Position numbers and translations under genes: made by a program | From: Chloroflexota bacterium | Lineage (GTDB): Bacteria > Chloroflexota > Anaerolineae > Aggregatilineales > Phototrophicaceae | Assembly: GCA_011523515.1 (NCBI GenBank) | Contig: WTGO01000069.1 | Location: forward strand, 71,890-135,889 | Length of the DNA stretch: 64,000 nt | Direction of reading: 5' to 3' | Shown here: positions 12,893 through 37,587 of the stretch, one piece after another | How the letters are laid out: every line of letters begins with the position of its first letter | How positions within the stretch are numbered: the first letter of the stretch is position 1 | Notes under the pieces: generated by a model | Databases searched by the model: none | Told to the model about the DNA's origin: nothing | The model's input: the letters and a program-made list of their open reading frames with translations, nothing else

Positions 12893-14041
12893 GTGATTCA
12901 AGATCGGCAGCGGTTTGCAGGGCGCATTCGCGCAGCCCTAAATTTCGCAGGGCGGCAATTGCGCCATCTGGTCACCGTCCATCCAGACTATTTCCCGATG
13001 TATACGGTTGCGGGCAAGTGGAAGCACGGCGGCGAGGCCTGGACAAATTGGTGCGAGGGATTTCTGGGCGGGCAATTATGGCTGATGTTCGCTTACACAG
13101 GCGATTTGTGGTGGCGCGATTCAGCTGTACATTATTCGCGCCTGATTGAGCACCGAAAGACAGATGACTCCGTACACGATCTGGGATTCCTGTTTTGGTC
13201 GACTTGGCGGCGCTGGTACGATTACGCGCCGAACGACTCCATCAACGCTGTTCTAATTGAAGCGGGGAAGACGGCCGGCTCGCGCTTTCGCGAAAATGGA
13301 CAGTACCTGCCCTCCTTTGTCTCCGCCGAAAGCAGCTTCATCGACATTATGATGAACGTCGGTATCATATTCTACGCGGCTGAGCAAAGCGGCGATGCGG
13401 CGCTCGCGCAAAGTGCGGCCAGGCACTGTCACACCACTCGGCGTTATCTGGTGCGCGGCGACGGTAGCACGGCGCACGAAGGGCTCTTCAATACCGACAC
13501 TGGTGATTTCCTCCGCGCAAGCACGCATCAGGGCTGGCGAGACGATTCGTCGTGGGCGCGGGGCTTAACCTGGGCCATTTACGGTTTCGGAACCGCGTAC
13601 CAGTTTACGCGGGGCATTCGCTTTCTGCAGACCGCCGAAGCCTGCGCCGCGTATTACATTAAACACACAGCGACGCACGGCGTGCCGCCGAACGATTGGT
13701 TGGAGCCCGATCCAGCAGACCCATTCGAAAGCTCGGCCGCGGCCATCGCTGCGAGCGCGTTTTTGCAGCTGGCCGAACTCGCCACGGACGCCGTTAGGGC
13801 GCGCATGTATCAACAGTATGCCTTCACAATTTTGGACAGACTGCTGCAGCCGGACTTCCTCGCGCTGGAGACGCCGCAGTGGGAGGGCATACTGAAGCAG
13901 GGAACGTACCACCAACGACTGGGTTTAGGCGTCAATGAAAGCGTCATGTGGGGCGAATACTTTTTCCTGGAAGCGCTCCTGAGCGCGCTGAATATCTTGA
14001 CTGACGGCGGCGGCGCTGTTTCGGCACGTCCGGGCGGCTAA
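12893..14041 (+). CDS. GH88-like unsaturated glucuronyl hydrolase (GH88/GH105 clan)
   Basis: WTNWCEGFLGGQLWLMFAYTGD, HDLGFLF, WARGLTWAIYGF, PPNDWLEP. No signal peptide. GTG start with AAGGTGG upstream. Confidence 0.7.
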   Translation: MIQDRQRFAGRIRAALNFAGRQLRHLVTVHPDYFPMYTVAGKWKHGGEAWTNWCEGFLGGQLWLMFAYTGDLWWRDSAVHYSRLIEHRKTDDSVHDLGFLFWSTWRRWYDYAPNDSINAVLIEAGKTAGSRFRENGQYLPSFVSAESSFIDIMMNVGIIFYAAEQSGDAALAQSAARHCHTTRRYLVRGDGSTAHEGLFNTDTGDFLRASTHQGWRDDSSWARGLTWAIYGFGTAYQFTRGIRFLQTAEACAAYYIKHTATHGVPPNDWLEPDPADPFESSAAAIAASAFLQLAELATDAVRARMYQQYAFTILDRLLQPDFLALETPQWEGILKQGTYHQRLGLGVNESVMWGEYFFLEALLSALNILTDGGGAVSARPGG

Positions 14042-14059
14042 CGACGATCTGCCCAGCTG

Positions 14060-16144
14060 TCAGTGCTCTCCCCGGCGCAATATCCGGCAGGTCTTTGCGC
14101 CAACGACATCGGGTTCCCCCGCCAGCCCGATAGCGTCGATAGTTACATGGCCTTTGTCCCATACCACCAGGCCAGCACCTATTCGCTCGATCTGTATTCG
14201 GCCGTCCGGGACTTCAAGCGTTAGCGCCGAATGCTGGGGACCGTGATAAGCGGCGACCCATAACTCAGCCTCCGGCAGTCCGACCAGCCAGGCGGCCTCC
14301 TCCCCGCAACTCAATGTAGCGTGGCCGACTTTGATGACGCCGGTCCGACTTTCCCTGGCCAGAGGCGAAGCGAGCATCGGGAAGCCCAGGTCGCCGCCAT
14401 GGGTCCAGCGCCGCTGAATCCGCCAACGCATGAGATCGACCTCAATGCCAAGTTCGTGATCGTCGCCTTGGTAAACCACGCTCCAATGCCGTGAATCTAC
14501 TCCGTCAAATGTACGAGCGTCGGCGACCTGCTCCTTTAGCCTCCCGCGCTTGAAGGCATTGAAGACTGCTTTGCCATCGGCGAAGCGGGAGCTGGCGACC
14601 ACCTCCACATAGAAGCTGTTATGGACATAGCCCTGGAAGAACGCGCCAGGATTAGCCAATTCCCAAAATGTCTTTTCCGGACCGAGGTAGTTATACATCT
14701 CCAGGACGAGGCTGCCGCGATGCTCCACGATGCGAACCGGCGCGTTTAACCCTAGCCTGCGGCGCGCCAGCGGACAGACCACAATGTAGACATTGCCGCA
14801 GGCGACCACAATGGCTGATCCCTCAGGCACTTCCACAGGCATGTCCTGTATGCGCGAGCCGTCAATCCAGAGCGCATCGACATCGTCCGCCTGGTTCCAG
14901 ATCAAGACGGCTTTGGCGCTGAAACAACGCGACCAGGCGTCAAGTTCGCGCGATGTATACAGGCCGATTGCGCGCGAGCCGGCGAGCACGCCGCGGAAAC
15001 TGCCTTCGTCGCGGAAGACGCCGTCGCTCGCGCGCGACGGTGTCGTCCGGAAGTCTCCCAGCCACTTGTCGTTGATCAAATAGCGGGAGAAGACCACACC
15101 TGGCGTGGTCTGGTTTTCTCTGGTGTAGTGGATCGAGAAGACATTGGCTTGATTGCTGATGAAACGGTTTGACTGCGTCGCCAACTCTTGTGTCGCCACG
15201 CCGATGCTGTAGTCGGCATCCAGAGTGCTCGAAATGACGACGCCGGCCTCAGCATCGGATGTTTCCTCCACCATCATGGGCGTGGCGCGCTGGTTCAACA
15301 CGGTCTCAAGCCAAGCGGGAACCTTGCCCTGGGCCAGCATCCGGGAAAATATCGATGCCTCCGGGGGCGTCTGAAATACGAGATGGGGATAATAAGCGCG
15401 GCAATGGGGCGGGGCCAGCCGACCGGTCTTGGCATGCAGGCGCAGGCCGACACTGAGCCCGACGCGCGCGATAACCAACTTGGCGAGCATGCAGGCTTCC
15501 GCATGGCGGGACAAGACGACCACCTTGTGCAGCGCTTCAATCAACACGAATGAATATGTCGGGCTGTTGTACTCGTGGGGGATACCGCTCCGATTGATGA
15601 CATTGAGCCAGTGGCGAAGTTTGTCCGCGCCGCGCCGCGTATATTCGGGCAGGTTCAATAGCTGGCCGCCCAATAGTGAATTGGCAATATCCTGCGCCAC
15701 TATATTGGAATAGACGGGTGAAACGTCGATCCCGCGAATGGCGTCCAGGCCGAGTTGAATACGCGCTCGGGTACGTTGTACTAACGGGTCCGACAAGCGA
15801 TCGGAGTGCTTCATTAGCAAGGGTATCAGGCGAATAAGCACGAATTGGACGGCGTTCAAGTCCTCCACCGCCTGATCTTCGCGCTCCCACCTGAAGTTGC
15901 CGTAGTGCGGCGAATGCGCGTCCATATCCTGGCAGCCCATTACGGCATCTATGATCGCTTCAGCGCGCCGGACCTCGGCTGGCGATCCACGCTCGACCAA
16001 AGCCACGGCGTACTCGGCGGACATCCAGGCCGAGTGGAAAATGCCGTTGTCGATGACGTTGGCGACAAGCTGCGCCTCCGGGTTGAAATAGTGTGGCGCC
16101 GCATTTGGGCTCGCTTGCGGAAAGAGCTCGGCGGGTTCTAGCAT
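14060..16144 (-). CDS. hypothetical 694-aa cytoplasmic protein, last gene of the Opp-type operon (candidate glycan-active enzyme, family not recognised)
   Basis: Long ORF with coding-like composition and ATG with GAAAGG upstream. The helix-rich N-terminal ~300 aa (HSPHYGNFRWERED, HEYNSPTYS) is followed by a beta-rich C-terminal half. No signal peptide and no motif I can assign. Confidence 0.6.
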   Translation of the reverse strand: MLEPAELFPQASPNAAPHYFNPEAQLVANVIDNGIFHSAWMSAEYAVALVERGSPAEVRRAEAIIDAVMGCQDMDAHSPHYGNFRWEREDQAVEDLNAVQFVLIRLIPLLMKHSDRLSDPLVQRTRARIQLGLDAIRGIDVSPVYSNIVAQDIANSLLGGQLLNLPEYTRRGADKLRHWLNVINRSGIPHEYNSPTYSFVLIEALHKVVVLSRHAEACMLAKLVIARVGLSVGLRLHAKTGRLAPPHCRAYYPHLVFQTPPEASIFSRMLAQGKVPAWLETVLNQRATPMMVEETSDAEAGVVISSTLDADYSIGVATQELATQSNRFISNQANVFSIHYTRENQTTPGVVFSRYLINDKWLGDFRTTPSRASDGVFRDEGSFRGVLAGSRAIGLYTSRELDAWSRCFSAKAVLIWNQADDVDALWIDGSRIQDMPVEVPEGSAIVVACGNVYIVVCPLARRRLGLNAPVRIVEHRGSLVLEMYNYLGPEKTFWELANPGAFFQGYVHNSFYVEVVASSRFADGKAVFNAFKRGRLKEQVADARTFDGVDSRHWSVVYQGDDHELGIEVDLMRWRIQRRWTHGGDLGFPMLASPLARESRTGVIKVGHATLSCGEEAAWLVGLPEAELWVAAYHGPQHSALTLEVPDGRIQIERIGAGLVVWDKGHVTIDAIGLAGEPDVVGAKTCRILRRGEH

Positions 16145-16220
16145 CTTGTGACGACCTTTCTAGTGAACAGCCTGGTGTGCAGGAAGCTGGGCGCGCGTCA
16201 TGCGGCCGGTCGGGGCGCGT

Positions 16221-17300
16221 TCAGCCGATATCATTGCTTGCCGCGCCAATGGATTCAAAGCCGCGTAGCTCCAATTCCTCGGCAAAATGGCAAGCCACCC
16301 AATGATTTTGGCCAAGCTCGCGGACGGGAGGCTCTTCGAGTCGGCAGCGGTCCTGGGCGAATCGGCAGCGCGGGTGAAAATAACATCCGCCGGGCGGATT
16401 GCCGGGATCGGCGACCTCTCCCTCCAAGCGGATTCGCACGCCTTTGTTGCGCAGACGCGGATCAGGCTTGGGCACTGCCGACAGCAGCGCTTCGGTGTAG
16501 GGATGCAGCGGATTATTGAAGAGTTCCTCGGTCGAGGCCAGCTCCACGATTTTGCCGACATACATCACGGCCACGCGATGGCTGATATGCTCGACAACGC
16601 TGAGATCATGAGCGATGAACAGATAAGTCAGGTTGAATTCTTCTTGCAGGTCTTGCAAGAGGTTTAGTATTTGCGCTTGAACCGAGACATCCAGGGCCGA
16701 GACCGCTTCATCGGCGACAATTAGGCGAGGGTTCAAAGCCAGCGCGCGGGCGATGCCGATGCGCTGGCGTTCCCCGCCGCTGAAAGCATGCGGATAGCGC
16801 CGAATATACTCGGGTCGCAGGCCGACCCGTTGCAGAAGCATCGCCACACGATCTTCCAGTTCGGATCCGCTGGCGACTCGATTCACCTTGAGCGACTCGC
16901 CGATGATCTGGAGTATCGGCAGCCGCGGATTCAATGAGGAGAACGGGTCTTGAAAAATCATGCGAATCTGGCGCCGGAAGGGTCGCAATTCTCGATTGTC
17001 CAATTCCGCCAGATCTATCGTTTCTTGTTCGTCCACGCGGTAGATGATCTGGCCTGAGGACGGGCTATATACGCGCGCGATGCAGCGGCCGGTCGTCGTC
17101 TTGCCACAGCCGGACTCGCCGACCAGGCTCAAGGTTTCGCCAGGCAGGATATAGAAGCTGACATCGTTAACCGCATGAACATAGCCGACGGTCCGCCGCA
17201 TCATGCCCCGTCTGATGGGGAAGCGCATGTGCAGATTGCGGACCTCCAGCAACGGACCCCGGCTATCAACCGGCGCATTGACAGCTGAATCAGGCTTCAA
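16221..17300 (-). CDS. Opp/Dpp-type ABC transporter ATP-binding protein (OppF/DppF-like)
   Basis: Walker [10 protein letters not shown], signature [15 protein letters not shown], Walker [14 protein letters not shown]-terminal oligopeptide-type extension [27 protein letters not shown]. Confidence 0.9.
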
Positions 17301-18370
17301 CTTGGCAGCTCCTTGTCCGAATTAAGCTCGGGCGCGCCCGCATAAAGCAGGCAGCGTACGCTATGTTCGCGGCCGATGAATTGGCGGGGCGGGTCAATGC
17401 GATCGCATTTATGGGCGATAAAGTCGTCGCAGCGCGGATGGAAGGGACAGCCACGCGGGCGATCAAATGGATGCGGGACGATGCCTTTGATCGAATACAG
17501 CCGTCTGCGGTCATGGTTGCCATAGCGCGGAATCGATTGGAGGAGCGCGCGCGTATAGGGATGTTTGGGATCGTGGAAAATGGCATCGACGGCGCCGCTT
17601 TCCACATCGCGTCCGAGGTACATGACAACCACTTCATCCGCAATCTCGGCGACTACGCCCAGGTCGTGCGTGATAAAGAGCACGGACATGCCGGTAACCT
17701 GCTGCAAGTCACGAATGAGATCAAGTATGTTGGCTTGTGTGGTGACGTCCAGGGCCGTGGTTGGCTCGTCCGCTATGAGAACCTGCGGCTCGCAGGCGAG
17801 CGCGATGGCAATCATGGCGCGCTGGCGCATGCCGCCTGAGAGCTCGAATGAGTATGCGTCAAGCCGTTCGCTGGCGCGCGGAATGCCGACAAGATCAAGC
17901 ATGGCTGCGGCGCGTTTGCGCGCTTCCCGTTTCGTCACGGGCAAGTGAAGCATAATCGCTTCCATGATCTGGCTGCCGATCGTATGCACTGGACTCAGCG
18001 AGGACATGGGTTCCTGGAAGATCATGCTGATCTCACCGCCGCGGATTCGCCGGATCTCACGCCCTTTGGGGTTCATTGTGGCCAGGTCGATTGATCCGCC
18101 CTGCCGTTTCCTGAAGTTGATCTGCCCGGAGACAATCTCTCCCGGCGCCGGCACAATGCGCAGAATCGAGCGCGCAGTCACCGATTTGCCGCAGCCGGAT
18201 TCCCCGACGACACATAGGGTCTGGCCGCGTTTCAGCGTCAAATTAACGCCATCAACGGCCTTCACAACACCTTCGTCGGTGAAGAAGTGCGTCTGCAGAT
18301 TCCGCACGTCCAGCAGGACGCCGTCTGCGGCTGGCGCGCTGTTATCAAGCCTGGTATGGATCGGCTGCAT
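17297..18370 (-). CDS. Opp/Dpp-type ABC transporter ATP-binding protein (OppD/DppD-like)
   Basis: [55 protein letters not shown]. 4-nt overlap with the downstream gene. Confidence 0.9.
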
Positions 18371-19505
18371 CTCTCAGGCCGTCTCCTAGAAAGTTCATGG
18401 CCAATACGGCGACGACAACCGCCAAGCCCGGAAATAGCAGCCAGGGCGCCGTCGCGATAGAACGCACATTCTGCGCTTCCTGCAGCAGCACACCCCAACT
18501 AACCACTGGCGGCCGCAGCCCGATACCCAGGAAGCTGAGGGCTGTCTCGGCGAGAATCATGCCCGGAATCGCCAGCGTCACGGAAGCGATGATATGGCTG
18601 GTCATCGACGGCGCCATGTGACGCAGGATGATTTGCAGCTCGCGGACGCCATCCAGGCGCGCGGCGATGACGAAGTCCTCGGTTTTGAGTGAGAGAAAGC
18701 GGCCGCGCACCTCGCGCGCCAGGGCGGTCCAGCCGATTAACGACAGCAGCACGGTGATGGCGAAATAGACGCGTACCGGCGGCCAGGTCAGCGGGATGGC
18801 GGCGGAAAGCCCCATCCAGAGCGGGATTGTGGGCAGCGAGCGCAATATCTCGATCGTGCGCTGGATCAAGTTATCGACAATGCCGCCGTAATAGCCGGAG
18901 ATGCCGCCCAGTATCACGCCGAGCAGCAAGCTTAAGCCCACGCCAACCAGACCAACGGACATTGAAATTCTAGTCCCGTATATCGTCCGGCTCAGTACAT
19001 CGCGGCCCAGGCGATCGGTGCCCAGCAGGTAGACAGGGTCGCCATATTGCGCCGCGCCGATCAGATGCAGGTCGAGCGTAAACAGCCCCCAGAGCTCGTA
19101 TTCCTCCCCGCGAACGAACAGGCCAACCGGATAAGTGACGGTCTCGTCAAGTACGTATGTGCGCTTGAAAGAATCGGGATCCACTTCCACTTGAAAGCCG
19201 TAGACGTGGGGATATAAACGCCAGCCGGCATCGGTCTGTTGAAAGAGATTGATGCTCTGTGGCGGGATAAATGTATGCCGCGCGCTATAGGTTCCGGCTG
19301 AATAGGGCGCGAAGAATTCTGCGAAGGCGGCGACAACATACAGGAAGATGGTGACGACGCCGGCGGCCATCGCCAGTCGGTGTTTGCGAAACTTCCACCA
19401 GATCAACTGCCATTGGTTGGCGACGACAATCCGCGTTTCGGCTGTGGATTCAGCCGCTGGGTCAGCAGACGCGTCCTTCAGCGCGCGAGTCGGCTCCTCG
19501 GTCAT
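18345..19505 (-). CDS. Opp/Dpp-type ABC permease (OppC/DppC-like)
   Basis: Polytopic protein with an N-terminal OppC-type extension and an EAA-like loop (AARLDGVRELQIILRHMAP). Overlaps both neighbours. Confidence 0.85.
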   Translation of the reverse strand: MTEEPTRALKDASADPAAESTAETRIVVANQWQLIWWKFRKHRLAMAAGVVTIFLYVVAAFAEFFAPYSAGTYSARHTFIPPQSINLFQQTDAGWRLYPHVYGFQVEVDPDSFKRTYVLDETVTYPVGLFVRGEEYELWGLFTLDLHLIGAAQYGDPVYLLGTDRLGRDVLSRTIYGTRISMSVGLVGVGLSLLLGVILGGISGYYGGIVDNLIQRTIEILRSLPTIPLWMGLSAAIPLTWPPVRVYFAITVLLSLIGWTALAREVRGRFLSLKTEDFVIAARLDGVRELQIILRHMAPSMTSHIIASVTLAIPGMILAETALSFLGIGLRPPVVSWGVLLQEAQNVRSIATAPWLLFPGLAVVVAVLAMNFLGDGLRDAADPYQA

Positions 19506-20479
19506 TGGAGTTGTATCCTGGGATCAATCCAGGCCAGCAGAATGTCTGATACTAGGGTGCCGATGATGGTGAGTACGCTGACCAGCAAGATCAGACTGCC
19601 GGCCAGATACATGTCTTGCGCCTGCAGGGAGCGATAGAGCAAGGGACCTGTGGTCTGCAGATTCAAGACAATAGACGTGATTGCGGAGCCGGAAACCAGC
19701 GCCGGGAAGACCCAGGCCATGGCGCTCACCAGGGGATTCAACGCGACCCGAACCGGATACTTGAAGAGCAGCTTAAGTTCTGAAAGCCCGCGCGCTCGGG
19801 CGGCGTCCACATACAGCTTTGACAGTTCGTCCAGCAAGTTGGCGCGCATAACCCGAATCAACGCGGCCGTACCGGCGGTCCCCAGAATGATAACCGGCAG
19901 CCACAGATGGGCGAGCAAGTCCAGCACACGTTGGTAGGACCACGGCGCCTCGATGTAGTCGGGGGAGAACAAGCCGCCGACGCTTTGGCCGAAATAGCGG
20001 AAGGCAATATACATCAAGACCAGGGCGAGCAGAAAATTCGGAATCGCCAGGCCAATAAAGCCGATGACAGTCACCAGGTAATCGCCGATGGTATATTTTT
20101 TGACGGCCGAATATATGCCTATGGGAATGGAAACAATCCAGACAAAGGCCAGCGTGAAGAGTGAAATCACCATCGTCAGCGCCAGACGCTCCCAGATCAA
20201 GTCGCTGACAGGCCGATTCCACTCGAAGGAGTCGCCGAAGTCTCCCCGCAGAACAATACCGCTGATCCATTTCCAGTACTGCACATAAATTGGATCATTA
20301 AGACCGTACCGTTCGCGCAAGGCATCAACCTGGGCTTGGTCGATCGTCTCTTCCGCTTTGCTGATGAGCGAGGCGAGAAAGTCGCCGGGCGGCAACTGAA
20401 TCACGATAAATGCGATGATCGAGACGACGAGCGGCGTCGGAATCAGATACAAGATTCGACGAGCTATGTACCAGAGCAT
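19502..20479 (-). CDS. Opp/Dpp-type ABC permease (OppB/DppB-like)
   Basis: MLWYIARRILYLIPTPLVVSIIAFIVIQLPPGD is a typical OppB/DppB N-terminus. EAA loop YVDAARARGLSELKLLFKYPVR. Confidence 0.9.
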   Translation of the reverse strand: MLWYIARRILYLIPTPLVVSIIAFIVIQLPPGDFLASLISKAEETIDQAQVDALRERYGLNDPIYVQYWKWISGIVLRGDFGDSFEWNRPVSDLIWERLALTMVISLFTLAFVWIVSIPIGIYSAVKKYTIGDYLVTVIGFIGLAIPNFLLALVLMYIAFRYFGQSVGGLFSPDYIEAPWSYQRVLDLLAHLWLPVIILGTAGTAALIRVMRANLLDELSKLYVDAARARGLSELKLLFKYPVRVALNPLVSAMAWVFPALVSGSAITSIVLNLQTTGPLLYRSLQAQDMYLAGSLILLVSVLTIIGTLVSDILLAWIDPRIQLQ

Positions 20480-20509
20480 CGGTCGGGCTTTCCTTGCGTT
20501 TATACGATG

Positions 20510-21919: not shown

Positions 21920-21958
21920 CCGGCAAATCCTCGAATTCCGGCTGAATTGGACAATAAT

Positions 21959-21986
21959 CCGTCAGGCACTGGCTTGTGCCTGACGG
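21959..21986 (-). terminator. 11-bp stem-loop between the SBP gene and downstream genes (partial terminator/attenuator or mRNA stabiliser)
   Basis: CCGTCAGGCAC (21959-21969), loop tggctt, GTGCCTGACGG (21976-21986). On the minus strand it is followed by AUUAUUGU, a weak U-tract. Confidence 0.45.
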
Positions 21987-22007
21987 ACACTAGTTCAAGC
22001 GATCGAC

Positions 22008-23947: not shown

Positions 23948-23992
23948 GGTATTCCTCCAAAAATAGCTAATCGATTCGAAATTGTTTTGGCA

Positions 23993-24022
23993 ATTGTAAT
24001 CCTGCTAGCGAAGCCTTGTCAA
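23993..24022 (-). promoter_or_regulatory. near-consensus promoter TTGACA-N18-TACAAT for the Opp-type operon
   Basis: Minus strand: TTGACA (24022-24017), 18-nt spacer, TACAAT (23998-23993). About 45 nt upstream of ATG 23947. Confidence 0.55.
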
Positions 24023-24114
24023 AAAAGCGCGGTTTCCCAGAAAGCAACCCAAAAGGCTCGTACCATGATTAAATTGATTATTTGCCGGGCATTGGGTCGC
24101 GGATTGCCGGAGTG

Positions 24115-29804: not shown

Positions 29805-30863
29805 TCAGCGACTAGAATCCAGCTCAATAAAAGCCAGGCGCAAGAATTCGTAAGGGTGGCTCTCTCCGCCTTCGTAGAGGCACAGGACACGACCGTCGGG
29901 CGCGGCCGCCAGATCTGAATAAGCGCTGGGGCCGCCGAAAAGCGTGACATGGCCGGGCCAGGTCGCGCCTTCATCGCTGCTGCCACGCAGGGTCATATTG
30001 ACGCGCTCGCTGGCGCTGGCCGGGTTGGCAAAGAGAATGATTCCGTTTGATTTCGGACAGTTGATAATGCTCGCCTGACAAATGGGTTCAATCAGCGCCG
30101 GATCAGTTCGCTGGTCGCCCCAGGTCAGGCCGCCGTCCGCGCTGCGCGCCACTTGCCGCGCCCGCGCGCCGGGCGCATAACTGCGCATATTCAGCAGCAG
30201 ACGACCGCCACCGAGTTCGACGACTTCGCACTCATTCACTTGGGGCCGAGGCGTGCGCCCGCCCAGATTCCAGCTCGCGCCATTGTCGTCGCTATAGATG
30301 ATATGCGAGTAATAGTCCTTGGTCTCCGATTCGATATGGTCGCAAGGAATAACGAGGCGTCCGCTATATTTCCCGTTTCGAATCTGAATGCCGTGTCCCG
30401 GCCCGGTCGCGTACCAGGTCCAGTCAGCCCGCTTGACATCGCCTGTTATTTCATTCGGCAACGACCAAGTCAAGCCGTCGTCAATAGAAGATGTAACGTA
30501 GACGCGACGCGTGTCGTGGCTGCTGCCGGCGATGATGTCACGTTCATGGTCATCGCCGCGGTTCCAGGTCATCAGCAAGTGGATTGCGCCGCTGTCGCGG
30601 TCGACTACCGGCGCCGGATTGCCACAAGTATTGCCAGCGTCATCCCACACGATTGACTGGCGGGACCAGGTTGCGCCGCCGTCGGTCGAGCGCTTGACAA
30701 GCAGCGCGATGTCGCCGAAATCGCGGCGGTGATGTTTGCGCCCTTCGCAGAAAGCAAGAATCGTACCGTCTCTGGTGACAGCCAGGGCGGGGATACGATA
30801 GGTGTGGTAGCCATCGCTGCCGCTGCGCCAGAGGTCGAACTGCTCGACATTCTGTTTAAACAT
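29805..30863 (-). CDS. GH33-type exo-alpha-sialidase, no signal peptide
   Basis: YHTYRIPALAVTRDGTILAFCEGR. Five Asp-boxes (STDGGATW, SIDDGLTW, SDDNGASW, SADGGLTW, SSDEGATW). Confidence 0.8.
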   Translation of the reverse strand: MFKQNVEQFDLWRSGSDGYHTYRIPALAVTRDGTILAFCEGRKHHRRDFGDIALLVKRSTDGGATWSRQSIVWDDAGNTCGNPAPVVDRDSGAIHLLMTWNRGDDHERDIIAGSSHDTRRVYVTSSIDDGLTWSLPNEITGDVKRADWTWYATGPGHGIQIRNGKYSGRLVIPCDHIESETKDYYSHIIYSDDNGASWNLGGRTPRPQVNECEVVELGGGRLLLNMRSYAPGARARQVARSADGGLTWGDQRTDPALIEPICQASIINCPKSNGIILFANPASASERVNMTLRGSSDEGATWPGHVTLFGGPSAYSDLAAAPDGRVLCLYEGGESHPYEFLRLAFIELDSSR

Positions 30864-30868
30864 TCGTC

Positions 30869-31747
30869 TTAGCCTTTGATTCCGCCGATCATGATGCCTT
30901 TGACAAAATAGCGCTGCACGAAGGGGTAGATGAAGAGGACAGGCACCGTGCTGACGATTATCAGCGCCGAACGCAGGGAGGCAGCCGGGGGCGGGTCTTC
31001 AATGAATGCAAGTTCCTCAAGGCCTTGCATATTGGTGGTTTCCAGCAGGCTGCGCAGGATAATCTGCATCGGCTTCAGGTGAGATTTGTCGATGTAAATC
31101 GCGGCGTCGAACCAGGAATTCCAGTGCCAGACGGCGTAGAAGAGCCCGATGGTGGCGATGACGGGCATGGACAGCGGCAGCACGATGCGCAGCAGGACGG
31201 TCGGTGGCGACGCGCCATCGACAATGGCGGCGTCGAATAACTCTTCCGGCAGGCTCATAAAGAAGTTGCGCATAATGAGCATATTCCAGGCGTTGATCAA
31301 GCCGGGGAAGACCATCGACCAGAGCGTGTTGCGCAGGCCCAGCGCATCGACCAGCAGAAAGCGCGGTATCAGTCCGCCGCTGAAAACCATGGTGATGAAG
31401 ACGAATATCGTCAGTGGCACGCGGCCGGGCAAGTCCCGCTTCGCCAGCGCGTAGGCCATTGTGATTGTAAAGGCGAGGTTGAAGCCGGTTCCCACAACCA
31501 CGCGGAAAAGCGTGACACCGTAAGCGTTGAGAATGACCTTGCTGCGTCCAAAGAGGATATCGTAGGCGCCGGAAGAGAAGGCTTCGGGGTAGAGTACGTA
31601 TCCGCCGCGGCGAGCGAATTCGGCATCGCTGATGAATGAAGTGGAAAAAACGATGATGAAAGGAATAAGGAATGCCAAGGTCAACAGTATGAGCAGCAGG
31701 TATATGGTAGCGTGAGCGAGCTTTTCGTTGCGCGATAGCTTGAGCAT
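30869..31747 (-). CDS. CUT1-type carbohydrate ABC permease (LplC/YtcP-like)
   Basis: Six-TM pattern with EAA loop ELFDAAIVDGASPPTVLLRIVLPLS. Confidence 0.88.
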   Translation of the reverse strand: MLKLSRNEKLAHATIYLLLILLTLAFLIPFIIVFSTSFISDAEFARRGGYVLYPEAFSSGAYDILFGRSKVILNAYGVTLFRVVVGTGFNLAFTITMAYALAKRDLPGRVPLTIFVFITMVFSGGLIPRFLLVDALGLRNTLWSMVFPGLINAWNMLIMRNFFMSLPEELFDAAIVDGASPPTVLLRIVLPLSMPVIATIGLFYAVWHWNSWFDAAIYIDKSHLKPMQIILRSLLETTNMQGLEELAFIEDPPPAASLRSALIIVSTVPVLFIYPFVQRYFVKGIMIGGIKG

Positions 31748-31757
31748 GCGCCTTCTC

Positions 31758-32738
31758 CTACCACAAGCCCGGCTGGCCCAATCGGTTGGCCAGGGTATTC
31801 GCTACGATTAGAAACAGGAAAGCCATGACGCCTTTGAACAAACCTACCGCCGCTGCGAACGAGTACTTGAGCCCCAGCAGACCCTCGCGATAGACGTAGG
31901 TATCGATGATATCCGAGACGCTGTAGACTGCCGGCGAGTAGAGTAGCAGAATCTGTTCAAAGCCGGCGTCCAACAGATTCCCGATTTCAAATATGAAGAG
32001 AATGGTGATGACAAAGGCGATGCTGGGAAGCGTGATATGGCGCGCCATTTGGAAGCGGTTGGCGCCGTCGATAGCTGCCGCTTCATAGAGAGCCGGATCA
32101 ATCGCGGACATGGCGGCCAGGTAGAGGATGCTGCTCCAGCCGATCGTCTTCCAGACGTGCGTGAGCGTCAAGATGCCGCGAAACTGGTCGGGATTGGTCA
32201 GGAACGTCCAGCGCTCCCCGGTCAGCTCATTCAGCCATTCCGTAATCAGACCACCGCTGGTCGCCACCAGCGCCGTCACCAGACCCGTAGTCACCACCCA
32301 GGAGATGAAGTGGGGCAGATAGGACACGGTCTGCACGAAGCGCTTGAATTTGACGCGAAAAACTTCATTGAGCATGAGGGCGAAGATGATTGGAGCCGGA
32401 AAGCCAAAGATGATCTTCAAACCGCTAATGACCACGGTATTTTCGATGACATTCCAGAAGAATATGGAGTTGAAGAAGCGATTGAAGTGCTTGAAGCCCA
32501 CCCAGGGCGCTTCGATAATCCCGGCGACGCCGCCGAAGGGCGAGATGTCTTTGAAGGCGATGACAATGCCGATCATCGGCAGATAGTGAAAAATGATGAA
32601 ATACAAGATGCCCGGCAAGGCGAGCAGGTAGTAGAAGCGGAAGAACCAGATGCGCTTCAGAAGCCTGCGCCATTTGCCGTCGTTTGACACGGAGGGCGAA
32701 TAGCGGCTATGCGGCATCATGCTGCTATGGGCGGTCAT
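31758..32738 (-). CDS. CUT1-type carbohydrate ABC permease (LplB-like)
   Basis: N-terminus KRIWFFRFYYLLALPGILYFIIFHYLPMIGIVIAFKD is typical of LplB-type permeases. EAA loop YEAAAIDGANRFQMARHITLPS. The ATG overlaps the upstream stop (TAATG). Confidence 0.88.
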   Translation of the reverse strand: MTAHSSMMPHSRYSPSVSNDGKWRRLLKRIWFFRFYYLLALPGILYFIIFHYLPMIGIVIAFKDISPFGGVAGIIEAPWVGFKHFNRFFNSIFFWNVIENTVVISGLKIIFGFPAPIIFALMLNEVFRVKFKRFVQTVSYLPHFISWVVTTGLVTALVATSGGLITEWLNELTGERWTFLTNPDQFRGILTLTHVWKTIGWSSILYLAAMSAIDPALYEAAAIDGANRFQMARHITLPSIAFVITILFIFEIGNLLDAGFEQILLLYSPAVYSVSDIIDTYVYREGLLGLKYSFAAAVGLFKGVMAFLFLIVANTLANRLGQPGLW

Positions 32739-34288
32739 TAACCTGCGCCTGCTGTCTGTGCGGCTGATTTGAGGCGCGGCACAGGAAGCGCAGCTCGCCA
32801 GCCGCCGCGAAGGCGCGCGGACAAGTCGCTGATTGTCCGCGCGTAGCTCGCGTCTCCAGCGACATTGTGGATTTCAGCGCCACTTTCACTGTGATCGTAC
32901 AGCTCGCGCTCAAGTATCTCGCCCGAGCCAAAGTCTTGCCACTCGGTATAACGATAGCGGACGGCGCGTATGCTGTAGCCCATCACTTCCGGCTCGCCGC
33001 GATACGTCCAGGGGCGGGGAAACTGGCTGAAGGCGGCCGTTTTCCAGGGCAACTCCGGCTCCTCCAGCAGCGGCGCCAGGCTGAGTCCTTCAAGATCTTC
33101 GCGCGGCGGCAAGCCGCAGCAATCGAGCAAGGTCGGATAGATATCGACGAATTCGACCAGTGCGTCGCAATCACCGGCGGGAGCGCCGGGAACGGAAACT
33201 ATCAGTGGCGCGCGCGTATCCAGCTCATAGTTGGTGGTCTTGCACCACAGCGCCTTCTCGCCGAGGTGATAGCCGTGGTCGCCCCAGAGCACGATGACGG
33301 TATTTTGACGCAGTCCCTGCTCATCCAGCGCGGCAATGAGCTTGCCAACCTGGGCGTCCATGTAGCTGACGCAGGCGTAATATCCGTGCCTGAGTCTGCG
33401 AACCAAGTCGTCGGGAATGGGTCCCTTGTCTGGAATGTCGCTGTAGCCCCGCAGTTCCTTGCTGCTGTGCCAGGCGAAGTCGGGAATGCCGACGGGCTTC
33501 TGCGCGTGTTCCGGCGCCGATATAGCATCGCGCTCATATAGATCCCAATAGCGCTTTGGCGCGCTGAATGGCAGGTGCGGCTTGCGGAAACCGACGGCCA
33601 GAAAGAAAGGATAGTCGCCGAATTCAGCCAGAAGCTTGCAGGCGGCTGCGGCGACTCTGCCATCGCCGTAAGCATTATCGGGCGCATCAGCGGCTTCTGT
33701 GGCGGCCATCTTGTAGCCGGGCCAGCGCTCGGCTGCTGGCGTTTGGTTCTCCGTCAGCAAGTAGTCGGCGCTCTTCCAGACGACATTCAGAAGGGCGTCG
33801 TCCGACCAGGATCGCGGATCCTGCGCTTGCGGCGAGCCGTGATAAATCTTGCCGACCGAACGAGAGATATAGCCCTGCTGCTTGAAGCATTCAGGCAGTG
33901 TGACGACATCGGGTCTTGCCCCGCGGAAATGCGTGCCGCCGCAGTACTGCGGCAACTCCGCCAACTGGTCAGGAAGCTCGTGGCGGAAATGGGATTTCAA
34001 ATCCCAAACCCTAATCGTATCCGGACGCAGGCCGGTCATCAGCGAAGCGCGCGAAGGGTTGCAAACGGCTTGCTGGCAGTAGGCACGCTGAAACACTGTG
34101 CCGCGGGCGGCGAGGCGATCAATGTTCGGGGTTTTCGCGTTGCTGTCGCCGTAGCAGCCGAGCGCGGTCCTCAAGTCATCGACAGCGATGAAGAGTACAT
34201 TTGGCTTGTCCGTGGAGTTCAAAGCGGTCCGCTTTGGCAATGGCGCGTCTCGTCGGGAAGGATCCACAGAACTTGGAAACTCGCTCAC
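32738..34288 (-). CDS. formylglycine-dependent sulfatase, iduronate-2-sulfatase-like, no signal peptide
   Basis: NVLFIAVDDLRTALGCYG and VCNPSRASLMTGLRPDT, the CNPSR variant typical of IDS-like sulfatases. GTG start. Confidence 0.85.
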   Translation of the reverse strand: MSEFPSSVDPSRRDAPLPKRTALNSTDKPNVLFIAVDDLRTALGCYGDSNAKTPNIDRLAARGTVFQRAYCQQAVCNPSRASLMTGLRPDTIRVWDLKSHFRHELPDQLAELPQYCGGTHFRGARPDVVTLPECFKQQGYISRSVGKIYHGSPQAQDPRSWSDDALLNVVWKSADYLLTENQTPAAERWPGYKMAATEAADAPDNAYGDGRVAAAACKLLAEFGDYPFFLAVGFRKPHLPFSAPKRYWDLYERDAISAPEHAQKPVGIPDFAWHSSKELRGYSDIPDKGPIPDDLVRRLRHGYYACVSYMDAQVGKLIAALDEQGLRQNTVIVLWGDHGYHLGEKALWCKTTNYELDTRAPLIVSVPGAPAGDCDALVEFVDIYPTLLDCCGLPPREDLEGLSLAPLLEEPELPWKTAAFSQFPRPWTYRGEPEVMGYSIRAVRYRYTEWQDFGSGEILERELYDHSESGAEIHNVAGDASYARTISDLSARLRGGWRAALPVPRLKSAAQTAGAG

Positions 34289-34340: not shown

Positions 34341-35801
34341 CTATACGCCGCCCAGTTCGTTGTATTGAGCGGATATCGCGTTGACCCAGTCGTTGATGCC
34401 GGCGCGCTCGAGGTCGTTCATGAAGTCGTCCCATTGATCGAGCGGGCGCTGACCGGTGATGAACAGAATGGTCTGCTCGTCCAGAAGGCGCGTGATATCG
34501 CCCAGTGTGGGCACTTCATCGGCGATACGGCTCAGATTGTAAGCCAGCCCGCCATCAAAGGGCCATTTGGCATCGCCCAAATCGATCAATTGCCCACCCA
34601 GATACTCGACATGCCAGGCGCGGGACGGGTCGTCCAGGCTGTAGCGGATCTCGATATTGAGGTTGGGCAGCATGTATTCGCTGACATAGCCGAAGCTCAA
34701 GTCAGGATTGACCAGGTTAGTTGCTTCATCCAGGTAATCCCACATTTCGCCCTTGATGCCGTAGCGCGCGGTCAGTTGATTGTCGGTGGTATCGGCGCTA
34801 TAGACCCAATCCATGAACTGGATGACAGCGGCCGGGTGCTCCGCTTTGCGCGTGACAACGTAGGCGCTGGCGTTTTGCGGACGGGACGTGGCTATGTATC
34901 CCATGTCGGTGGTGATGCTGGTGCGCGCCCAGGCGATGCCTTCGCAGCCGCTTTCAATTTGCGGCGTGATCAGCGTGATGCGCGAATACCAGCCCATCCA
35001 TACGCCCAGGTTGCAAGTGCGGAACAACTCCGGCGCGTCGAAGCGCGTGAAGGTATCGGGGAAGAAGTAACCGGCTTCCCACCAGGAATTCAGCTCGGTC
35101 ACCCAATCGCGGACGCCGGGCTGCAACACCCAGGGTTTTACCATGCCGTCGTCGGGGTCAAGCCAGTTGGAGTGACCGTTGGGGGTGAAGCCACCGAGGG
35201 TCGTCCAACGGATGTCCCCGGGGCGTGTCGCGACCATGGCTTCGGGATTATGCGCCAGGAACGCTTCAATGGTAGCTTCCAACTCATCCCAGGTCGTCGG
35301 CACTTCCAGGCCCAGCTCGTCAAGCCAATCCTGGCGCACCCAGGTGATGTAAGGGCTGGTTGGCGTCGAGCGCGGAATGCCCATGATTTCGCCATCGGAA
35401 TTGCGCATGATATCAAACTGTTGCTCGGGAATAACTTGCAAGATGTTCTGGCCATGTTCCACGAGCAGATCAGTGATGGGGATGATCGCCATGGCGTAGT
35501 CATGCCAGCCATTGCCGCCGGCTTGGAAGAGGTCGACCGGGTCGCTGGAACCGAGCAGGAGATTCAACTGCTCCGTAGCGCTGGCGGCGCCACCGGGTAC
35601 GATTGTGACCGGACGGACGCCCGACTGCTCGGCGATATGATCTTGCACGCGCTGCAATACATCGGGGTCGCTGCCGCCCGCATCAAACTGGAGCGTACCG
35701 GAATTGTTAAAGATGTAGATGACCGGTTCGTCCTGGGCCATTGCCGCTGGCAATAGCAATATTAGAACTAACAACAATGAAACAATACGCAGCCTGCTCA
35801 T
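34341..35801 (-). CDS. family-1 extracellular solute-binding protein (LplA-like, CUT1 sugar ABC system)
   Basis: Signal peptide MSRLRIVSLLLVLILLLPAAMAQDE and GGAG 7 nt upstream of the ATG. Size and Trp-rich composition are typical of polysaccharide-type SBPs. Confidence 0.8.
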   Translation of the reverse strand: MSRLRIVSLLLVLILLLPAAMAQDEPVIYIFNNSGTLQFDAGGSDPDVLQRVQDHIAEQSGVRPVTIVPGGAASATEQLNLLLGSSDPVDLFQAGGNGWHDYAMAIIPITDLLVEHGQNILQVIPEQQFDIMRNSDGEIMGIPRSTPTSPYITWVRQDWLDELGLEVPTTWDELEATIEAFLAHNPEAMVATRPGDIRWTTLGGFTPNGHSNWLDPDDGMVKPWVLQPGVRDWVTELNSWWEAGYFFPDTFTRFDAPELFRTCNLGVWMGWYSRITLITPQIESGCEGIAWARTSITTDMGYIATSRPQNASAYVVTRKAEHPAAVIQFMDWVYSADTTDNQLTARYGIKGEMWDYLDEATNLVNPDLSFGYVSEYMLPNLNIEIRYSLDDPSRAWHVEYLGGQLIDLGDAKWPFDGGLAYNLSRIADEVPTLGDITRLLDEQTILFITGQRPLDQWDDFMNDLERAGINDWVNAISAQYNELGGV

Positions 35802-35949: not shown

Positions 35950-35978
35950 ACTATAACGAATTGCGCTGGACATGTCAA
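35950..35978 (-). promoter_or_regulatory. near-consensus promoter TTGACA-N17-TATAGT for the CUT1/sulfatase/sialidase operon
   Basis: Minus strand: TTGACA (35978-35973), 17-nt spacer, TATAGT (35955-35950). It implies a ~140-nt 5' leader before ATG 35801. Confidence 0.55.
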
Positions 35979-36076: not shown

Positions 36077-36105
36077 AAAAAAGGCCCTGCATCTGTCGCA
36101 GGGCC
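36077..36105 (-). terminator. rho-independent terminator after the GH-A gene
   Basis: Minus-strand RNA GGCCCUGC-GACAGAU-GCAGGGCC followed by UUUUUU. It begins 34 nt after the stop at 36139. Confidence 0.75.
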
Positions 36106-36138
36106 CTACTTCTGATCATGGAATCCGCATGGCTAGAT

Positions 36139-37587
36139 CTATATCCCCATGGCGCTGCCAAGGGCGCCGCATGCCGGGCAGCCGCCATCGGGTCGTATCA
36201 TCGCGTAGCCGGCCTGCGGATCGGCTCCAAAGGCGGTGAAGTTCACATTCCATACGATCATTATGCTAACGTAGCCCGAGCCACGAGCAACGTTGACCGC
36301 GCCCGCGAGCCAGGACGCTTGCTCGGCCAACGAATTGCCGTTGGCCCAGGCAAACCTCTGAGGTAGGGCTCCCAAACCCTCGCCGGTGAGATAGCCGAGT
36401 TCGGTAAAGCAGAGCGGCTTCGACGGAAACGCGCCGCGGTAGACGCTCATCATGCTGGGCAAATACCAAGAGTAATGCCCGGCACTGCCGACCGGCGCCC
36501 CGCTGGTGGCGGTCGGCGGTACAGCGCCGGCGTTGTAGTGAACGCCCACGCAGTCCAGGTAGTTGGCTGCGCCTGCTTGGGCCATTTGCGCCACAAATGT
36601 GTTGTCGTTGCAGCCTCCGTCTTCGCAGCCAGTTGCCGAAAAGCCCGTTGGCGCCGGCGCGCCGCTGATTACGATTGTGGCTGGATTGGCGGCTTTGATG
36701 GCTTGGTAGGCTGCCTGTAAGAGACGTGTATACGAGGTTCCGTTGATCTGTCCCGCGGGCCACTCGTGCTGAATATTCGGCTCGTTCCACACCTCAATAG
36801 CGTCGGCGCCCAGACTGGCCAAATGCGCCACATATTCGGCGAATACCTTGACATAACCATCAAAGTCGGACGCCAGATTGTTCTTGTTGCCCAAAGCGCC
36901 CAGCAGCACCTTGAAGCCCTGGCCATGCGCTTGAGCGATAATATCCCTGCCATCGGATACGCCGTGCCTTACTTGCTTTTTGACCCAGGTCATCCCGGCA
37001 CTACGCATCGCGTTTGTGGCCGCCCCATCCAGGCCGACGATGTGGCCGCCCAAGGCGAAGCCGCCAACGTTTGCTGTGCTGGCGGCGACAGCCTGCGCCG
37101 CTTCACCTTCTCCCTCGCTCGCTTCCGCGGCCGGCGCCGGGGCGGGCGCGTAACGCGGTGGGATGAGCGCCTCGTCACAAATGACCGTGTCTTGCAGGTC
37201 GTAGCTGACGCGCGCCTGGTGAGCTTGCCCGGCGGTTGTATCAAACGTAAAGGTCCAGCCAAAGAGTATGTGATCGCGTTTCTGGCCAATCGGCACACTG
37301 TCTGTACAATTGTCAATGCCAAACGTCTGGTACAAGTTGAGGCTTGCCCGGCTGCTCCAGTCATCTTCGTAGAATCGCCAGCGCCGTAGACGCATGGTCT
37401 CGCCAATATCCTCCTCGATAAGTTCTCGCGCGAGCTCCATCGCGCGCCGAACCGGGCTGACAGTTGGCTGCTCAGCTTGGCTGTCGTCTTGCGCCATTGC
37501 TGGCGCGGCCGCGCCTAGCATTAGCAGAATCAATAGAATGACGCCCATTTGCATGACCACTGCCGGTTTACAGGTTTTGGATCGCAT
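36139..37587 (-). CDS. secreted clan GH-A (GH5-like) glycoside hydrolase with unknown N-terminal domain
   Basis: Signal peptide ...MQMGVILLILLMLGAAAPAMAQDD. Ala/Pro/Glu linker. TIM-barrel motifs IEVWNEPN (acid/base NEP) and CFTELGY (nucleophile Glu) about 125 aa apart. Confidence 0.65.
   Translation of the reverse strand: MRSKTCKPAVVMQMGVILLILLMLGAAAPAMAQDDSQAEQPTVSPVRRAMELARELIEEDIGETMRLRRWRFYEDDWSSRASLNLYQTFGIDNCTDSVPIGQKRDHILFGWTFTFDTTAGQAHQARVSYDLQDTVICDEALIPPRYAPAPAPAAEASEGEGEAAQAVAASTANVGGFALGGHIVGLDGAATNAMRSAGMTWVKKQVRHGVSDGRDIIAQAHGQGFKVLLGALGNKNNLASDFDGYVKVFAEYVAHLASLGADAIEVWNEPNIQHEWPAGQINGTSYTRLLQAAYQAIKAANPATIVISGAPAPTGFSATGCEDGGCNDNTFVAQMAQAGAANYLDCVGVHYNAGAVPPTATSGAPVGSAGHYSWYLPSMMSVYRGAFPSKPLCFTELGYLTGEGLGALPQRFAWANGNSLAEQASWLAGAVNVARGSGYVSIMIVWNVNFTAFGADPQAGYAMIRPDGGCPACGALGSAMGI

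Follow-up and report, generated by a model that had tools for sequence, protein, structure and literature searches.

Two neighbouring predicted cassettes for glycan import and intracellular degradation in a Chloroflexota bacterium, one of them ending in a candidate polysaccharide lyase

Eighteen consecutive genes occupy positions 12893-37587 of a 64,000-nucleotide stretch of Chloroflexota DNA (contig WTGO01000069.1 of assembly GCA_011523515.1, positions 71,890 to 135,889; hereafter, the window). Seventeen lie on the minus strand and one, convergent with them, on the plus strand. An earlier interpretation based on the letters of this DNA and their predicted translations (the sequence-only reading) had described the genes as one locus resembling a polysaccharide utilisation locus (PUL). 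Our analysis recovered all eighteen open reading frames (ORFs) at the coordinates proposed and suggests a different organisation. Probably, the region contains two independent glycan cassettes, both of the "import first, degrade inside" type, that lie next to each other by chance. Cassette 1 comprises genes g8 to g2 and the convergent gene g1; cassette 2 runs from g17 to g9 (Table 1). The glycan-utilisation theme is retained, with sulfated substrates of uronate and sialic-acid type and with ATP-binding cassette (ABC) importers in the place of SusC/SusD; the idea of a single unit is not. Pfam scans, which covered window ORFs of at least 200 aa that do not overlap a longer ORF, identified no TonB-dependent receptor and no SusD family member, hence no SusC/SusD pair.

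Separate inheritance of the two cassettes is apparent from comparison with a close relative, L092. In blastn alignments, L092 position 15590 matches window position 24137 and L092 position 15650 matches window position 10151, the flanks being about 84% identical at the nucleotide level. Within about 60 bp of the L092 orthologue of g9 come genes corresponding to window 7849-10151. Therefore, 10152-24136 constitutes a presence/absence segment. It carries genes for an enoyl-CoA hydratase, a CoA-transferase, the GH88 protein, g2, the Opp system, a sulfatase and a solute-binding protein (SBP). No repeats or traces of mobile elements were found at its ends, and GC content is even throughout the region with no anomaly at 10152-24136. 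The segment may have been inserted here or, equally, deleted in L092.

Conservation elsewhere follows the same division. The order SBP_bac_5, sulfatase, OppB, OppC, OppD, OppF, g2 is kept in about 30 related genomes (transporter proteins 76-94% identical, g2 64-72% identical), and cassette 2 is not beside cassette 1 in these genomes. GH88 adjoins g2 in 15 of 31 close relatives, as determined by ORF clustering, and a CoA-transferase comes next in 19. Conversely, cassette 2 is present in L092, collinear at 84% nucleotide identity, at the site where cassette 1 is missing. Its order from g17 to g9 is kept in L092 and L097; L098 keeps the order but lacks g13. Protein identities in these genomes are 60-99%. 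In both L097 and L098, cassette 2 has other neighbours. Since all of these genomes keep the cassettes apart, their adjacency in the window is lineage-specific. Even smaller units can be told apart, as the g12+g11 pair occurs alone in L103, about 6 kb from cassette 1. From gene content and order, the presumed 18-gene locus thus consists of two cassettes and of smaller modules, g12+g11 among them, each assorting independently of the others.

The CoA-transferase (531 aa) and enoyl-CoA hydratase (258 aa) genes, at 10263-12631, are divergent from the GH88 gene. The pair accompanies cassette 1 in 15-19 relatives with no evident functional link, and a promoter-like site with 11/12 matches lies beside it at 12729-12701.

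Table 1. Features of the region and its immediate neighbourhood. Functions and cellular locations are predictions.
Feature	Position in window	Strand	Evidence or remark
Presence/absence segment	10152-24136		13,985 bp; absent at same site in close relative L092 (blastn)
g1, GH88 unsaturated glucuronyl hydrolase (382 aa), cytoplasmic, convergent with g2	12893-14041	+	PDB 1VD5/2AHF
g2, 694-aa cytoplasmic protein, last gene of Opp operon, candidate oligosaccharide lyase	14060-16144	-	Fold
g3 + g4, OppF/OppD-type ATPases	16221-18370	-	ABC_tran + oligo_HPY; 4-nt overlap
g5 + g6, OppC/OppB-type permeases	18345-20479	-	BPD_transp_1 with OppC_N, BPD_transp_1_N; 26-nt + 4-nt overlaps
g7, cytoplasmic Cys-type S1 sulfatase	20510-21919	-	CVPAR; Pfam Sulfatase 128 bits
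Hairpin between SBP gene g8 and sulfatase gene g7	21947-21998	-	Inverted repeat I10
g8, SBP_bac_5 solute-binding protein, mature part only	22008-23960	-	Pfam 198 bits
Out-of-frame signal-peptide leader of g8, MKKLTAFMSLILFLLLLFSPTLAQD	23873-23947	-	Three-frame translation
Promoter-like site upstream of g8	23993-24022	-	TTGACA-18-TACAAT, 11/12 matches, intergenic g9/g8
g9, cytoplasmic Cys-type sulfatase, last gene of CUT1 cassette	24115-25635	-	CTPSR; Pfam 172 bits
g10, divergent GH33 sialidase-family enzyme, cytoplasmic	25628-26725	-	BNR_2 73.7 bits
g11, cytoplasmic Cys-type sulfatase	26731-28128 (ORF to 28266)	-	CTPSR; Pfam 166 bits
g12, sialidase-superfamily propeller + lectin-like beta sandwich, not canonical GH33	28128-29726	-	BNR_2 64.5 bits
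g13, GH33 exo-alpha-sialidase-type enzyme, cytoplasmic	29805-30863	-	BNR_2 123 bits (cut-off 31.4)
g14 + g15, CUT1 (MalG/MalF-like) permeases	30869-32738	-	BPD_transp_1
g16, cytoplasmic Cys-type sulfatase, closest to S1_7	32738-34288	-	CNPSR; Pfam Sulfatase above cut-off
g17, SBP_bac_1 (CUT1) binding protein with signal peptide	34341-35801	-	Pfam; hydrophobic core KD 3.6
Promoter-like site upstream of g17	35950-35978	-	TTGACA-17-TATAGT, 11/12 matches, intergenic g18/g17
Terminator-like hairpin after g18	36081-36107	-	11-bp stem, 7 GC pairs, then T run
g18, secreted protein, C-terminal TIM-barrel-like region (NEP + TEL motifs)	36139-37587	-	Signal peptide
g19, GAF-PAS histidine kinase (cytoplasmic) + g20, ROK sugar kinase (338 aa)	37766-40425	-	Pfam; neighbours

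The enzymes of both cassettes are devoid of recognizable export signals. An N-terminal hydrophobic core is restricted to g17, g18, the permeases and the out-of-frame leader of g8. On the Kyte-Doolittle (KD) scale, g17, g18 and this leader reach 3.1-3.6, the ten enzymes at most 1.6. Longer N-termini are impossible, as every frame in the ORF list extends to the earliest start codon that follows a stop, and the orthologues in relatives have the same length. These properties suggest that the enzymes are cytoplasmic and that glycan degradation takes place after import.

The sequence-only reading had left g2 unassigned and had stated that the locus contained no polysaccharide lyase. The fold of g2 speaks against this. 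The AlphaFold2 (AF2) model of the protein (predicted local distance difference test score, pLDDT, 90.9; predicted template modelling score, pTM, 0.91) consists of a helical toroid at about residues 40-285 followed by a large beta sandwich. When the model was compared to PDB structures with Foldseek, the top 27 matches were all polysaccharide lyases, headed by heparinase III (4FNV, E 1e-6). These are lyases of PL8, PL12, PL17, PL33 and PL35 type, retrieved with probabilities of 0.99-1.0, and include a glycosaminoglycan (GAG) lyase, chondroitin AC and ABC lyases, hyaluronate lyases and BtPL33HA, as well as PL17 and PL39-type alginate lyases. In its overall fold, g2 belongs with the toroid plus beta-sandwich lyase class (PL8/12/15/17/21/33/35), the template modelling (TM) scores being 0.3-0.4. 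On the strength of the model, g2 looks like an undescribed polysaccharide lyase and is probably the lyase that seemed to be missing. A fuller proposal, which we make tentatively, is that g2 represents the founder of an undescribed lyase family, an exo-acting cytoplasmic enzyme providing the depolymerising step for imported, sulfated, uronate-containing oligosaccharides.

The family to which g2 belongs is large. Searches of clusters at 50% identity returned 2,057 representatives with E<=1e-3, while 370 passed E<=1e-30. Members occur in Chloroflexota, Poribacteria, Latescibacterota and Gemmatimonadota, which are known for their sponge symbionts. A protein identical to g2 is encoded on metagenome contigs from ENA (ERZ27234770, 171 kb) and from Logan (SRR10694905, SRR10694907). 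The related genomes carrying g2 are metagenome-assembled genomes (MAGs) whose titles read Phototrophicaceae, Aggregatilineales, Anaerolineae or Chloroflexota; Poribacteria, Latescibacterota and Gemmatimonadota are the titles of the more distant records. The NCBI taxonomy classifies Phototrophicaceae under Chloroflexota. Judging from isolate labels (COS, RHO, CO36386, Plut), many of the relatives look like sponge or coral MAG series. Residues N193, Y197, R249 and Y251 are invariant in the family, and their candidacy for catalysis is a guess. A tblastn search against plasmids produced one unannotated Streptomyces match with GH38, ABC permease and FAD oxidoreductase genes for neighbours, a setting that indicates "carbohydrate" and no more. 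In Poribacteria and Latescibacterota (L095, L096 and distant g2 loci such as L054 and L046), PhyH-family dioxygenases and GFO/IDH/MocA oxidoreductases recur by g12-like or g2-like genes.

Identification of g1 as a GH88-type protein, suggested previously, was upheld. Over residues 32-364 (333 residues) g1 matches the unsaturated glucuronyl hydrolase (UGL) structures 1VD5/2AHF at E 9e-46. Its HDLGF and IDIMMN motifs align to HDIGF and IDCLLN of the Bacillus enzyme, whose catalytic aspartates we take to be D88 and D149. The Pfam GH88 model (PF07470) scores 19.9 bits, under its cut-off of 26.6.

Equally, the four Cys-type sulfatases stand: g7, g9, g11 and g16 all exceed the Pfam Sulfatase cut-off (128-172 bits) and have the C/S-X-P/A-X-R motif inside the domain. 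Translation of g11 likely begins with the ATG at 28128, 1 nt of which is shared with the stop codon of g12. Affiliation is clearest for g16. The best PDB match of this protein is 6HHM (P18_S1_7, an endo-2-sulfo-D-xylose ulvan sulfatase; E 1e-100, 341 bits), followed by human iduronate-2-sulfatase, likewise of S1_7 type (E 2e-70, 242 bits), and, at 138 bits, by the next entry. With the S1_7 label of 6HHM and the subfamily names taken from PMC9096561, g16 would be closest to the carbohydrate sulfatase subfamily S1_7. The other three all fall under the NCBIfam equivalog cut-offs. Among them, g11 is best matched by 4UPI (E 8e-59) and by an S1_30 entry (E 3e-48), and the PDB matches of g9 spread over several S1 subfamilies (E 1e-44 to 1e-50). 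The position of g9 is conserved in L092, L097 and L098. For g7, the named families that match best are choline and aryl sulfatases, with scores that stay well short of the equivalog cut-offs; the protein is 77-83% identical in relatives and always located between the SBP and the permeases.

Both importers on which the locus was said to be built are represented by the gene sets expected, one Opp/Dpp-type and one CUT1-type. In cassette 1 the parts of the Opp/Dpp (PepT) system are complete: SBP_bac_5, OppB/C permeases and OppD/F ATPases with oligo_HPY (g3/g4 reach 394 bits with the NCBIfam dipeptide ABC ATP-binding subfamily). The claim fails for the binding protein, as the SBP_bac_5 gene g8 is frameshifted and its signal peptide split off. 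The in-frame N-terminus of g8 has no hydrophobic core, whereas the orthologues in 28 of 28 relatives begin with MKK...AQDMMYGEAPML in a single frame. The shift, situated between signal peptide and mature part, fits loss of 1 nt in ATGATG. An assembly error was considered as an explanation and found less likely: the truncated 614-aa product occurs on four public contigs (NCBI, JGI, ENA), whereas for three repaired versions no record was found in public contigs. For this reason the population probably does carry the frameshift, which may leave cassette 1 inactive in this genome. Between g8 and g7 lies inverted repeat I10, with 23-nt arms that are 78% complementary and a 6-nt loop. Hairpins involved in mRNA stability or attenuation are frequent after SBP genes, and such a role is possible for this one.

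Cassette 2 has the other set, SBP_bac_1 and two MalF/MalG-like permeases, and no ATPase gene, as had been proposed. The permeases are recognised by NCBIfam models of the UgpE/UgpA, MalG/MalF and GlcU/GlcT groups and are 55-61% identical to those of a Paenibacillus thalictri cassette. CUT1 importers without an ATPase of their own are ordinary, shared MsiK/MsmK-type ATPases being well known.

Three of the cassette 2 enzymes are BNR_2 propellers, two of which (g10 and g13) contain the YRIP motif. These two had been assigned to GH33, and sequence and catalytic residues agree. Residues 9-345 of g13 match the Micromonospora viridifaciens sialidase 1EUR at E 8e-46, its YRIP, NECEV, NMRS, ERVNMTLR and AYSDL segments aligning to YRIP, DENKT, NSRD, SRSQGTIR and SYSTL. 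The catalytic residues of the latter enzyme are presumably R68, D92, E260, R276, R342 and Y370. Thus g13 presents the Arg of YRIP, the Glu, two further Arg and the Tyr; the acid/base Asp (RRDFGD) is one position off. The g10 protein is 33% identical to g13 and matches PDB sialidases at E 2e-24. Its YRIP, GGDW, NETG, NMRN, RRNLT and GYSAL motifs align to the g13 catalytic positions, making up the full set. The sequence-only reading would have been refuted by propellers outside GH33 and sulfatases of non-carbohydrate type; with g10 and g13 in GH33 and g16 nearest to S1_7, this did not materialise.

The third propeller, g12, is different. Its sequence matches in the PDB are weak; with Foldseek, the AF2 model (pLDDT 88.2) retrieves propellers of the sialidase superfamily that carry an additional beta sandwich, namely Dfer_1899, BT_1020, trans-sialidases and a pseudaminidase. 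When the family profile was aligned to g13 with hhalign (probability 70%), an invariant K24-N25-P26 was found opposite R-I-P. The first Arg of the triad is thus replaced by Lys, the Glu (E198 region) and the middle Arg (R215) are kept, and the remainder is unaligned. A WRSP sequence was considered as a variant of the RIP motif and discarded, RIP being aligned to KNP instead. Because K-N-P sits where GH33 has R-I-P, g12 is best viewed as a sialidase-fold enzyme with an altered carboxylate site and not as a canonical sialidase. The family is unusually conserved: its members in Chloroflexota, Poribacteria and Paenibacillus thalictri are about 60% identical to one another. In other genomes the gene often directly adjoins a sulfatase gene.

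Additional genes join a homologous CUT1 and sulfatase cassette in L098 (2181-4844) and in Paenibacillus thalictri (L094, 14436-21472). They encode an HpcH/HpaI aldolase, a BNR_2 protein and a regulator, which is either of AraC type or of GntR type with a weak resemblance to NanR. A general association with the HpcH aldolase was rejected, the gene being seen in just two of the contexts examined. In L099, a 6.4-Mb genome, an 879-aa fusion of SASA and BNR_2 propeller domains is encoded at 14742-17381, beside two g10-like GH33 genes.

Taken together, these features can be arranged into a scheme for each cassette. In cassette 1, the Opp/Dpp-type system would take up a sulfated, uronate-containing oligosaccharide; in the cytoplasm, sulfatase g7 would remove sulfate, the lyase-fold protein g2 would cleave beside the uronate by beta-elimination, and the GH88 protein g1 would hydrolyse the resulting 4,5-unsaturated uronate. 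This would amount to a minimal toolkit of the glycosaminoglycan or ulvan type in which the lyase step has moved into the cytoplasm. In cassette 2, the CUT1-type system, energized by an ATPase encoded elsewhere, would import sulfated oligosaccharides capped by sialic-acid-type sugars. Stripping of this cargo in the cytoplasm would fall to three different sulfatases, among them the S1_7-like g16, to the GH33 sialidases g10 and g13, and to g12 with its aberrant sialidase fold. The sequence-only reading had considered that neither the substrate nor the completion of the pathway could be derived from known schemes. With g2 a probable lyase, the uronate half of the pathway is less mysterious than this.

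Several observations weigh against this account. Resemblance of g2 to lyases is by fold alone, with TM scores of 0.3-0.4 and about 10% identity. The g2 sequence has no match in Pfam, NCBIfam or the PDB, whether searched by phmmer or with a 38-member profile; no Pfam domain was found in the 38 members at E<=10, nor in 10 remote relatives at E<=0.01. The protein could be a hydrolase or have another function, and the mixed neighbours of distant homologues (PhyH, GFO/IDH/MocA, GH4, PL22, GH38) do not fix a substrate. Sulfatases g7, g9 and g11 could not be placed in a carbohydrate subfamily, their PDB scores being about equal over many S1 subfamilies. Neither kduI, kduD and kdgK nor sialate catabolism genes were found among the window ORFs scanned with Pfam, nor was, in the same ORFs, an FGE-sulfatase or radical-SAM maturase (anSME) that would serve the four Cys-type sulfatases. 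The g8 frameshift calls into question whether cassette 1 works in this genome. Promoter-like (sigma-70-like) sites are, in total, no more numerous in the region than expected from shuffled sequence. Finally, a sponge or coral habitat is deduced from record titles and isolate labels alone.

How far these points carry can be judged against the alternatives. Were g2 a glycoside hydrolase, an epimerase or a non-catalytic protein of the same toroid and beta-sandwich architecture, the unsaturated substrates of GH88 would be made extracellularly by lyases of other organisms. The low TM scores, the failure of Pfam and PDB profile searches to connect g2 to any lyase and the presence of GH146 and GH154 further down the Foldseek list all leave room for this, as does the neighbourhood: GH88 is not next to g2 in about half of the relatives, and distant homologues lie near oxidoreductases and glycoside hydrolases. 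Yet, 27 of 27 best structural matches are lyases acting on uronate polymers, and the operon holds a sulfatase and often GH88, the classic partner set of a lyase. We consider this alternative unlikely, while taking it seriously. Doubt extends to the cargo of the importer as well. All of the transporter parts are annotated as oligopeptide, dipeptide or nickel type and g7 is nearest, among named families, to choline and aryl sulfatases, as would suit a cassette importing peptides or small sulfate esters (sulfated peptides or compounds like choline-O-sulfate) in place of a glycan. However, the scores of g7 amount to about half of the equivalog cut-offs, the last gene of the operon encodes a lyase-fold protein and lies beside GH88, and Opp-family binding proteins that take up oligosaccharides are well documented in Thermotoga and Vibrio. 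Import of peptides or sulfate esters by cassette 1 thus seems very improbable.

A similar assessment applies to the view that all 18 genes, in two tandem operons, serve a single sulfated, sialylated and uronate-containing glycan. The cassettes are on the same strand, g9 and g8 are separated by about 155 bp that contain one promoter-like site, the enzymes of one cassette complement those of the other, and in L103 the g12+g11 pair lies close to cassette 1. Against this, cassette 1 is missing from the corresponding chromosomal site of L092, where cassette 2 is present; in about 30 genomes it is cassette 1 that occurs with no cassette 2 beside it, and in L097 and L098 cassette 2 has different genes around it. 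A single locus is accordingly improbable. Within a two-cassette arrangement, cassette 2 could still target sulfated glycans bearing a 2-keto-3-deoxy (ulosonic) acid other than Neu5Ac (Kdn, or one like Kdo or Dha), with the acid split by an HpcH/HpaI-type aldolase encoded elsewhere and not by NanA. Such an aldolase is found inside the homologous CUT1/sulfatase/BNR_2 cassettes of L098 (Chloroflexota) and L094, the two proteins being 54% identical to each other; in addition, no nanA/E/K was found among the window ORFs scanned, and in g12 the triad of sialidases is without its first Arg. The window contains no such aldolase, however, and none lies within 10 kb in L092 and L097. Furthermore, the sialidase catalytic set is complete in g13 and g10, whose best matches are Neu5Ac sialidases, a distant g10-like gene sits beside the sialate-O-acetylesterase (SASA) fusion, which points to true sialic acids, and the GntR regulator of L098 fits NanR best, though weakly. 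We regard a ulosonic-acid substrate as rather unlikely and retain, for cassette 2, sulfated oligosaccharides with sialic-acid-type caps as the preferred reading.

The remaining features of the region concern its expression and its borders. Stop and start codons overlap by 4 nt, 26 nt, 4 nt, 8 nt and, twice, 1 nt; these overlaps and the two near-consensus promoter-like sites are where the sequence-only reading had placed them and would be compatible with co-transcription within each cassette. Also in keeping with that reading, the non-overlapping window ORFs scanned include no nanA/E/K, kduI/D or kdgK gene and no gene for a LacI, GntR or AraC regulator. The g18 protein, previously thought to be a secreted clan GH-A enzyme, does have a signal peptide; its single Pfam match, GH113 (E 1e-3), is sub-threshold and NCBIfam gives none. 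Since a strong terminator-like hairpin follows g18, the gene is a separate transcription unit and falls outside the CUT1 operon. It is syntenic in L092, at 65% identity, and not found at this position in L097 and L098. The next two genes, g19 and g20, keep their order in L092 too, with no link to the cassettes shown. The ROK kinase g20 was considered as NanK and rejected, the glucokinase-type model fitting best (190 bits against a cut-off of 260) and every NCBIfam cut-off being missed.

The flanks are made of housekeeping genes (ClpB, PGM, MutS, RecJ, Fmt, IF-2 and NusA in Pfam scans), and scans of the window for tRNAs and Rfam families gave zero matches. A 260-aa Sulfotransfer_1-domain protein is encoded at 43202-43984, directly after the mutS stop codon; cytosolic-type sulfotransferases are uncommon among bacteria. 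At 7961-10155, two overlapping ORFs (224 and 507 aa) match no Pfam family except for a weak PPC hit; both are conserved, neighbours included, in L001 and L092. Further out, 1055-3178 encodes a 707-aa protein in which a putative esterase domain is fused to a PGA_cap (capsule synthesis/metallophosphatase-like) domain, and 61046-63736, at the window edge, an 896-aa NHL-repeat beta-propeller protein.

So far, the notion that sponge and coral symbionts feed on sulfated host matrix glycans has been argued from per-genome tallies of enzyme families. Sponge-associated Anaerolineae/Caldilineae, Poribacteria and Latescibacterota are reported to be enriched in arylsulfatases, GH33 and GH88, and use of host sialic acid and glycosaminoglycan has been proposed (PMC6306507, PMC8163846). 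The animal-type glycan suggested by the sequence-only reading fits this enrichment. The GH33/GH88/sulfatase theme is therefore already known, and the region is a concrete instance of it, offering conserved operon units fit for cloning and testing. In the literature consulted we found no description of how the cassettes are built, of their enzymes being cytoplasmic, or of the g2 family and the aberrant g12 family. If g2 is a lyase, a large unannotated family would join the polysaccharide lyases and explain how uronate-containing chains are opened; it would supply the depolymerising step in the symbionts' proposed use of a host matrix of the glycosaminoglycan kind. If cassette 2 acts on sulfated sialosides or ulosonic-acid glycans, it would define a substrate class for which no bacterial pathway has been worked out. 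Current ideas are not overturned by the region, and the g2 family is the part most worth following.

A lyase, a sulfatase, GH88 and an ABC importer together make up a toolkit already recognised for GAG (PMC5430744, PMC13260240). Clusters of this composition include Smon0121-0123 with UGL in Streptobacillus moniliformis (PMC5430744) and the haloarchaeal GAG "PULs" (PMC13260240). The S. moniliformis importer is not described as Opp/Dpp-type (PMC5430744), whereas that of cassette 1 is of this type. These systems resemble cassette 1 in that GH88 and desulfation operate in the cytoplasm; they differ from it in having a recognised PL8-type lyase, secreted or at the cell surface, where cassette 1 has the lyase-like g2 with neither family nor signal peptide. 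We take the S. moniliformis GAG importer to be CUT1-type. Closer to g2 in cellular location are the PL15/PL17 exo-oligoalginate lyases (Alg17c, PDB 4OJZ/4NEI), which belong to the fold class of its Foldseek matches and cleave oligomers in the cytoplasm after import. These lyases have no sequence similarity to g2, however, and the partnership of g2 with a sulfatase and GH88 points to sulfated substrates of the GlcA/IdoA type and not to alginate.

For cassette 2, there is a parallel with PULs of the Gram-positive type. In these, family-1 SBPs and ABC permeases import intact oligosaccharides; the milk-oligosaccharide cluster of Bifidobacterium longum subsp. infantis is an example, with intracellular exo-glycosidases including a GH33 sialidase and a shared ATPase encoded elsewhere. 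Cassette 2 resembles this mode of degradation, with three formylglycine sulfatases and an aberrant sialidase-fold enzyme added and, in contrast to the B. infantis cluster, without fucosidase, hexosaminidase or galactosidase. The Bacteroidota PULs that act on ulvan or on sulfated glycans of a host, such as the ulvan cascade of Formosa agariphila, combine several S1 subfamilies with a GH88/GH105-type hydrolase and lyases, and P18_S1_7 (6HHM) from this cascade is the closest match of g16. There, SusC/SusD and periplasmic or surface enzymes are used, whereas the region described here would rely on ABC uptake across a single membrane. Lastly, in the CAZyme profile of sponge-associated Chloroflexota, the phyla concerned are the same as those that hold g2 and g12 homologues (PMC6306507, PMC8163846). 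As far as consulted, these papers give family counts for each genome, and no mention of cassette organisation, cytoplasmic location or the g2 family was found in them.

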